Origin: Escherichia coli
Lineage (GTDB): Bacteria; Pseudomonadota; Gammaproteobacteria; Enterobacterales; Enterobacteriaceae
Strand: one strand, 5' to 3'
DNA: 64,000 nt
NCBI RefSeq assembly: GCF_003790525.1
Contig: NZ_CP033635.1
This document shows, one piece after another, positions 43,382 through 43,837 of this stretch (position 1 is its first letter; every line of letters begins with the position of its first letter). Made by a program: the position numbers and the translations under genes. The notes beneath the pieces were generated by a model that had not been told where the DNA came from, did no database searches, and was given only the letters and a program-made list of their open reading frames with translations.

Positions 43382-43837
43382 ATGAAACTTTTAAAAGTAG
43401 CAGCAATTGCAGCAATCGTATTCTCTGGTAGCGCTCTGGCAGGTGTTGTTCCTCAGTACGGCGGCGGCGGTAACCACGGTGGTGGCGGTAATAATAGCGG
43501 CCCAAATTCAGAGCTGAACATTTACCAGTACGGTGGCGGTAACTCTGCACTTGCTCTGCAAGCTGACGCCCGTAACTCTGATCTGACCATTACCCAGCAC
43601 GGCGGCGGTAACGGCGCAGATGTTGGCCAAGGTTCTGATGACAGCTCAATCGATCTGACTCAGCGTGGTTTCGGCAACAGCGCTACTCTTGATCAGTGGA
43701 ATGGTAAAGATTCTACTATGACTGTTAAACAGTTCGGTGGCGGTAACGGTGCTGCTGTTGACCAGACTGCATCTAACTCCAGCGTTAACGTCACTCAGGT
43801 TGGCTTTGGTAACAACGCGACCGCTCATCAGTACTAA
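43382..43837 (+). CDS. csgA: Major curlin subunit CsgA
   Basis: 151-aa ORF; five imperfect amyloid repeats of form S-x5-Q-x-G-x-G-N-x-A-x3-Q. Confidence 0.95.
   Translation: MKLLKVAAIAAIVFSGSALAGVVPQYGGGGNHGGGGNNSGPNSELNIYQYGGGNSALALQADARNSDLTITQHGGGNGADVGQGSDDSSIDLTQRGFGNSATLDQWNGKDSTMTVKQFGGGNGAAVDQTASNSSVNVTQVGFGNNATAHQY

Follow-up and report, generated by a model that had tools for sequence, protein, structure and literature searches.

What is the periodic DNA at positions 43508-43834 of this Escherichia coli sequence, the coding trace of a repetitive protein or a tandem repeat in its own right, and what lies behind the differences between its alleles? The block was analysed within the window, i.e. 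the whole stretch of 64,000 nucleotides from contig NZ_CP033635.1, whose first letter is position 1. We are nearly certain that the block is the part of csgA that encodes the amyloid core, composed of the five curlin repeats R1-R5, and that the periodicity of its DNA goes back to an old internal duplication.

Identity of csgA and completeness of the curli locus

A first-pass annotation had named the gene csgA, and the database searches agree with this assignment. The translated protein matches the NCBIfam equivalog NF007470 'curli major subunit CsgA' with 239 bits at a cut-off of 160, and the alignment runs end to end, from residues 1-151 of the protein to positions 1-150 of the 150 in the profile. 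The Pfam model Curlin_rpt (PF07012) finds five stretches (E 3.9e-28). In a phmmer search against the PDB, residues 21-151 match the fibril structures 8ENQ/8ENR, 'Major curlin subunit', with an E-value of 4.1e-77. Over the csgB-csgA-csgC stretch, the window shows 100% identity to E. coli SMS-3-5 (NC_010498.1), where these genes are annotated, and to many other genomes; the stretch is carried by 5385 of 5426 complete E. coli genomes. In SMS-3-5 the RefSeq products of csgB, csgA and csgC are the curli minor subunit, the major subunit and a chaperone, respectively. The window as a whole is close to SMS-3-5, with a single mismatch over 41,142 nt, and with 2 mismatches and 1 gap over the first 23.4 kb.

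The curli locus is complete, with csgBAC beside the divergent csgDEFG operon:

39786-42131, minus strand: divergent csgDEFG operon, based on the list of open reading frames and on the genes annotated by RefSeq in SMS-3-5, whose sequence is identical
39786-40619, minus strand: csgG of the csgDEFG operon
40646-41062, minus strand: csgF of the csgDEFG operon
41087-41476, minus strand: csgE of the csgDEFG operon
41481-42131, minus strand: csgD of the csgDEFG operon
42886-43341, plus strand: csgB, minor (nucleator) curli subunit, NF007506 match, RefSeq start at window position 42886
43382-43837, plus strand: csgA, major curli subunit, 151 codons and stop codon, NF007470 and SMS-3-5 match
43859-43882, plus strand: hairpin resembling a terminator, in the csgA-csgC spacer, CAGGGC-GCAA-GCCCUG and then U8
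43895-44227, plus strand: csgC, Pfam Tafi-CsgC (E 3.5e-54), RefSeq annotation concurring

The csgC product is taken to be the inhibitor that keeps CsgA from forming amyloid prematurely in the periplasm. For csgB, the list of open reading frames starts at the in-frame ATG 42859, 27 nt upstream of the annotated position 42886; the start at 42886 yields a 151-aa protein with an end-to-end match to the CsgB equivalog. Upstream, the 754-bp csgD-csgB intergenic region contains an Rfam match to the sRNA ES056 (119.7 bits; 42187-42278, minus strand), located in the 5' leader region of csgD. No csgA match was found in 44 of the 5426 complete E. coli genomes, and in EC96 at least, csgA is reduced to its last 120 nt. 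In plasmid records of the E. coli genome collection, csgA matches occur at five places, and some genomes have matches at two places.

The hairpin stands directly after the csgA stop codon, 13 nt ahead of the csgC start. RNA folding of 43838-43894 gave a minimum free energy of -22.1 kcal/mol (z = -5.7), and none of 200 shuffled sequences was as stable. An intrinsic terminator or attenuator ahead of csgC is a plausible role for this element, and the A-run preceding its stem could allow it to act in both directions. A consensus promoter/terminator scan of 42100-44400 missed the hairpin, and the promoter-like sites found by it were no more numerous than in shuffled sequence.

Architecture of CsgA and its five repeat units

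The protein consists of a signal peptide, the N22 segment and five curlin repeats. The same layout, with five imperfect repeats R1-R5, has been described for CsgA (PMC11005368).

43382-43441, plus strand: putative Sec signal peptide, residues 1-20 (MKLLKVAAIAAIVFSGSALA); the mature chain of PDB 8ENQ aligns from residue 21
43442-43507, plus strand: N22 segment, residues 21-42 (GVVPQYGGGGNHGGGGNNSGPN), with a match to 6L7C_S
43508-43576, plus strand: R1, residues 43-65, SELNIYQYGGGNSALALQADARN, 69 nt
43577-43642, plus strand: R2, residues 66-87, SDLTITQHGGGNGADVGQGSDD, 66 nt
43643-43711, plus strand: R3, residues 88-110, SSIDLTQRGFGNSATLDQWNGKD, 69 nt
43712-43777, plus strand: R4, residues 111-132, STMTVKQFGGGNGAAVDQTASN, 66 nt
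43778-43834, plus strand: R5, residues 133-151, SSVNVTQVGFGNNATAHQY, 57 nt, without the trailing arc

The extent of the signal peptide, and with it the putative cleavage site, was taken from the start of the 8ENQ alignment and the layout in PMC11005368. Residues 21-42 match the 22-residue peptide chain 6L7C_S (phmmer against the PDB, E 2.5e-06). Five imperfect units had been proposed at 43508-43834 from the letters alone; the translation contains all five peptides verbatim, and both the start and the end of the block are exact. The units are contiguous, with lengths of 23, 22, 23, 22 and 19 residues. Of the 19 aligned columns, seven do not vary between the five units (S1, Q7, G9, G11, N12, A14 and Q18), which gives the consensus S-x5-Q-x-G-x-G-N-x-A-x3-Q. 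Between units, pairwise identity is 42-58% for the protein and 37-70% for the DNA. The repeats R1-R5 of CsgA are already known and are among the best-studied functional-amyloid motifs, for which cryo-EM models exist.

Fold, export and fibre assembly

The identity of the gene, the boundaries of the units, the conserved columns, the shuffle controls, the locus and the near-identity to 8ENQ were computed here, while fold, secretion route and nucleation are taken from the literature. Over residues 21-151, the CsgA of the window differs from the 8ENQ chain at five positions, two of which are the engineered substitutions A63C and V140C, while the other three are the residues A61, D110 and T112 that also set it apart from K-12. 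A beta-solenoid fold with one beta-arch per repeat can thus probably be carried over from this near-identical chain. The 8ENQ cryo-EM model is a stacked beta-helical fibre with a beta-solenoid fold and a strand spacing of 4.8 Å (PMC11005368). The curlin repeat has been described as a strand-arc-strand beta-arch with inward-facing N/S, hydrophobic and Q residues, five being the usual number of copies in Escherichia and Salmonella; N22 is regarded as a degenerate repeat outside the core that targets CsgA to the CsgG channel (PMC10192328).

On this basis, each unit would fold as a strand-arc-strand beta-arch, and the five arches would stack into a beta-solenoid monomer with the conserved Ser, Asn and Gln and small hydrophobic residues facing the core. 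According to the literature, CsgA would be exported by the Sec pathway via its signal peptide and then pass the CsgG/CsgE/CsgF channel via N22, while CsgC would keep it unfolded in the periplasm. CsgB would nucleate CsgA at the cell surface, and the extracellular fibre would be built from monomers stacked one on the end of another.

Divergence of the repeat block between alleles

Compared with K-12, csgA of the window differs at 32 of 456 nt, and nearly all of these differences are synonymous and lie in the repeat block. A Nei-Gojobori-style estimate of dS between the two is ca. 0.30 for csgA, while csgB, csgD, csgE and csgC have values of 0, 0.022, 0.037 and 0.026, respectively. In bins of 150 nt, 16 and 14 differences fall within 43528-43827 and 0-7 in the bins elsewhere, i.e. 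30/300 inside the block vs 39/2753 outside (Fisher p = 1.4e-13). The interval 43508-43900, which extends from the block into the first part of the csgA-csgC spacer, forms an island that is ~10% diverged from most E. coli, with flanks that are 98.5-99.8% identical. Among the 5382 E. coli genomes with csgA, identity to the window allele is at least 99% in 815, 95-99% in 913, 90-95% in 3637 and 80-90% in 17.

Alleles of other species were retrieved by a degenerate pattern scan of genome contigs, which yielded neither E. fergusonii nor any record under the title E. marmotae or E. ruysiae; these species are represented in the comparison only if one of the 'Escherichia sp.' records belongs to them. 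Over the 327 nt of the block, identity to the window is as follows:

E. coli FDAARGOS_1267 (459-nt allele): 98.8%
E. albertii: 93.9%
Escherichia sp. MOD1-EC7003: 93.6%
E. coli 2024CK-00188: 90.8%
K-12: 90.5%
E. whittamii: 90.5%
E. coli E69: 90.2%
O157:H7: 89.6%
E. coli SCPM-O-B-8794: 87.2%
Escherichia sp. E1V33: 86.8%

Judged by nucleotide identity, the block allele of the window is nearer to that of E. albertii than to that of K-12, and K-12 and the window are as far apart here as different Escherichia species are. Of the 201 sites of R2-R4, 6 differ between the window and E. albertii and 24 between the window and K-12; the former proportion is below that of the rest of the albertii locus (138/1692, p = 0.007). 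The genes csgD, csgB and csgC of the window are 98.2-100% identical to those of E. coli strains, and 88.9-96.9% identical to those of E. albertii, E. whittamii, E69, E1V33 and SCPM-O-B-8794. The matrix of variable sites is a mosaic. MOD1-EC7003, whose flanking genes are 98.1% and 99.3% identical to those of the window, resembles K-12 in R2 and the early part of R3 but the window in R4-R5, and the polymorphic residues 61, 110 and 112 recur across species in different combinations.

Origin of the divergent block

The best reading of these differences is allelic homologous recombination, or the retention of old alleles, among Escherichia lineages, with the protein under strong purifying selection. 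The block divergence has probably arisen by recombination of alleles between lineages, and we rate the island as an ordinary mechanism in a neat place. Papers on how synonymous diversity varies among E. coli core genes (PMC4651231, PMC4802760) reportedly attribute it to gene flow. On this reading csgA is a small, well-delimited case of alleles being exchanged locally among members of the genus Escherichia while the protein is almost invariant; its nucleotide identity should be used as a lineage marker only with caution. A literature search for the divergence of the csgA block found no paper describing it; PMC8767327 tabulates CsgA protein variants only, and the tree in PMC11420993 was calculated from the whole 4.4-kb locus.

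A stronger version of this reading, which we consider rather unlikely, holds that E. coli contains at least three mosaic families of block alleles, ~10% apart in nucleotides, with a rough dS of 0.3-0.6 and almost identical flanks, as distant from one another as Escherichia species are, and that these alleles are old and have been kept or repeatedly exchanged across species by selection. Selection could then act on the small number of surface residues that are polymorphic (61, 110, 112) or on the mRNA itself. The alternative to selected alleles is that ordinary homologous recombination has left a neutral trace.

An elevated rate of mutation within the block is disfavoured. Identity to E. albertii is 93.9% in the block vs 88.9-95.2% in the flanks, and identity to Salmonella is 73.8% vs 72.4-83.6%; divergence between species and genera is therefore not raised relative to the flanks, which makes a mutational hotspot unlikely.

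Gene conversion between the units of csgA, i.e. concerted evolution that keeps the units alike or generates the allelic differences, is highly unlikely. It would fit the concentration of allelic differences in the repeat block as well as the 70% DNA identity of the pairs R1/R2 and R2/R4, in which identical residues are encoded by the same codon in 8 of 10 and in 6 of 11 cases, respectively. However, every Escherichia allele examined shows an equal mean identity between its units (29.2-31.0 of 57 nt), and at the 26 sites that differ between the window and K-12, the paralogous columns match either variant equally well (38 vs 36). On these two grounds unit-to-unit conversion was rejected as the source of the allele differences. 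The units are moreover too diverged for long identical tracts, and a mosaic pattern common to other species fits allelic rather than intragenic exchange.

Periodicity of the DNA and the response of repeat finders

Within 43508-43834 the self-match of the DNA reaches 0.526 at a lag of 135 nt, 0.453 at 69 nt and 0.383 at 66 nt (z = 6.9, 5.6 and 3.2, respectively), and none of 1000 codon shuffles was as high at any of these lags. The self-similarity of the protein (mean BLOSUM62) is highest at a lag of 45 aa, with 47% identity, followed by 23 and 22 aa; again, 0 of 1000 residue shuffles were as high. The periodicity of ~66 bp described in the first-pass annotation is hence real, but not as a uniform unit of 66 nt, as steps of 69 and 66 nt alternate and the 135-nt period is the strongest. 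The two-unit period (135 nt, 45 aa) is dominant in CsgA, with R1R2 resembling R3R4 and R3 resembling R5. The DNA periodicity is a by-product of an ancient internal duplication of the coding unit, which shows most clearly for a block of two units.

It had also been warned that a repeat finder could mistake this structure for a non-coding tandem repeat, which turned out to hold only weakly. Tandem Repeats Finder, applied to 42800-43900 at its most permissive minimum score of 30, returned no rows. A gapless seed-and-extend finder flagged three of the five units, giving one 53-nt family that joins only R1, R2 and R4 with 70-74% identity, and in addition some short families of GGC/GGT runs. The three copies of the 53-nt family, at spacings of 69 and 135 nt, are what could be said for a non-coding or unstable tandem repeat, of the satellite or contingency type, whose copy number varies by slippage. 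This explanation is barely credible and was rejected, since Tandem Repeats Finder finds no array even at score 30, the region lies wholly within an open reading frame of 151 codons with a full-length match to the CsgA equivalog, and the number of units is unchanged in the sampled alleles. The DNA identity of the units, at 37-70%, likewise speaks against it. The allele lengths were determined in 30 records spread over the 5382 E. coli genomes with csgA; 29 were full-length, and all 29 measure 456 or 459 nt. Two 459-nt alleles were translated, and their extra codon is a glycine in the N22 run, outside R1-R5. Third-codon positions account for most of the 82 variable block sites among 11 Escherichia alleles while the protein is nearly invariant, which is the signature of a translated and constrained sequence. 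As a sanity check for annotation, the periodic DNA of csgA is coding, stable in unit number and too diverged for Tandem Repeats Finder.

The GGC/GGT run at 43458-43491, which encodes the N22 glycines, is the sole length polymorphism of csgA among the sampled E. coli alleles. In the 459-nt form, found e.g. in O157:H7 and FDAARGOS_1267, GGGGN has become GGGGGN, and the glycine run varies in other Escherichia species too.

That the repeats are a chance effect of a low-complexity composition has practically no probability left: CsgA is indeed biased, being rich in G, N, Q and S, but shuffles that keep the composition of DNA codons or protein residues fall short in every one of the 1000 trials each, the conserved columns stand in strict register and the Pfam repeat model matches five times, and this explanation was ruled out by the shuffle controls.

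Other features of the window

Beyond the csg genes, the small fimbrial-like gene ymdA (44348-44659, plus strand) is 95.8% identical to K-12, with seven amino acid changes and a dS of ~0.10, and is more diverged than its neighbours. Its identity is 95.8-96.8% within E. coli and only 72-83% to the four other Escherichia genomes with a match; in E. albertii a search for ymdA found no match.

Between phoH and the tRNA-Ser gene serX (36500-36587, minus strand), the interval 35160-36500 holds only an open reading frame of 228 aa with a DUF2726 domain (35722-36408, plus strand). At this site K-12 carries pgaDCBA, dgcT, IS3D, ymdE and ycdU (~11.5 kb). The PNAG biofilm-polysaccharide operon is thus absent beside the curli locus here.

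torS (3048-5987, minus strand) is covered by an uninterrupted open reading frame of 979 codons, counted from an upstream TTG. RefSeq marks torS as frameshifted in the almost identical SMS-3-5, and the one gap between the two records lies within the first 23.4 kb.

Further Rfam matches at gathering level are:

908-1330, plus strand: cspA thermoregulator
12012-12090, minus strand: naRNA4
34961-35154, minus strand: Ysr251, antisense within the 3' end of phoH
52372-52414, minus strand: ES036
61545-61594, minus strand: PyrC leader

Comparison with CsgB and other related systems

CsgB acts as the nucleator of curli (PMC10192328). The CsgB of the window matches its NCBIfam equivalog NF007506 over the full length with 269.9 bits (cut-off 165), contains three Curlin_rpt (PF07012) stretches and aligns with CsgA by BLASTP at 30% identity (E 2e-05). 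Laid out on a 22-aa register, it comprises five units:

43021-43083, plus strand: CsgB unit 1, 21 aa
43084-43149, plus strand: CsgB unit 2, 22 aa
43150-43215, plus strand: CsgB unit 3, 22 aa
43216-43281, plus strand: CsgB unit 4, 22 aa
43282-43338, plus strand: CsgB unit 5, 19 aa

The autocorrelation of the CsgB protein has its peaks at lags of 22, 44 and 11 aa, with 0 of 1000 shuffles as high. Together with the Pfam and NCBIfam matches, this 22-aa periodicity bears out the remark in the first-pass annotation that csgB holds similar units. Like CsgA, CsgB belongs to the Curlin_rpt family, has 151 aa and is made of five units of 19-22 residues with Q/N ladders. Unlike CsgA, which is dominated by the two-unit period of 45 aa, it has a strong half-unit symmetry of 11 aa, and its R5 is degenerate and basic (KTAIVVQRQSQMAIRVTQR).

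Among orthologs, CsgA of K-12 (b1042, NP_415560.1) shares the length of 151 aa, the position in the locus and the five-unit architecture, and differs from the window at 3 of 151 residues (T61A, N110D and E112T, from K-12 to the window). CsgA (AgfA) of Salmonella and Citrobacter also has five units in register, and the block length in S. enterica subsp. diarizonae and C. koseri, 327 nt, is equal to that of the window. The DNA identity of the block is ~74% in this comparison, numerous surface residues are different, and N22 is not of constant length. A system that works in a similar way is FapC of Pseudomonas, reportedly a secreted biofilm amyloid of stacked imperfect repeats (PMC12392863, PMC12822426); it belongs to a sequence family unrelated to CsgA and to a different operon (fap).
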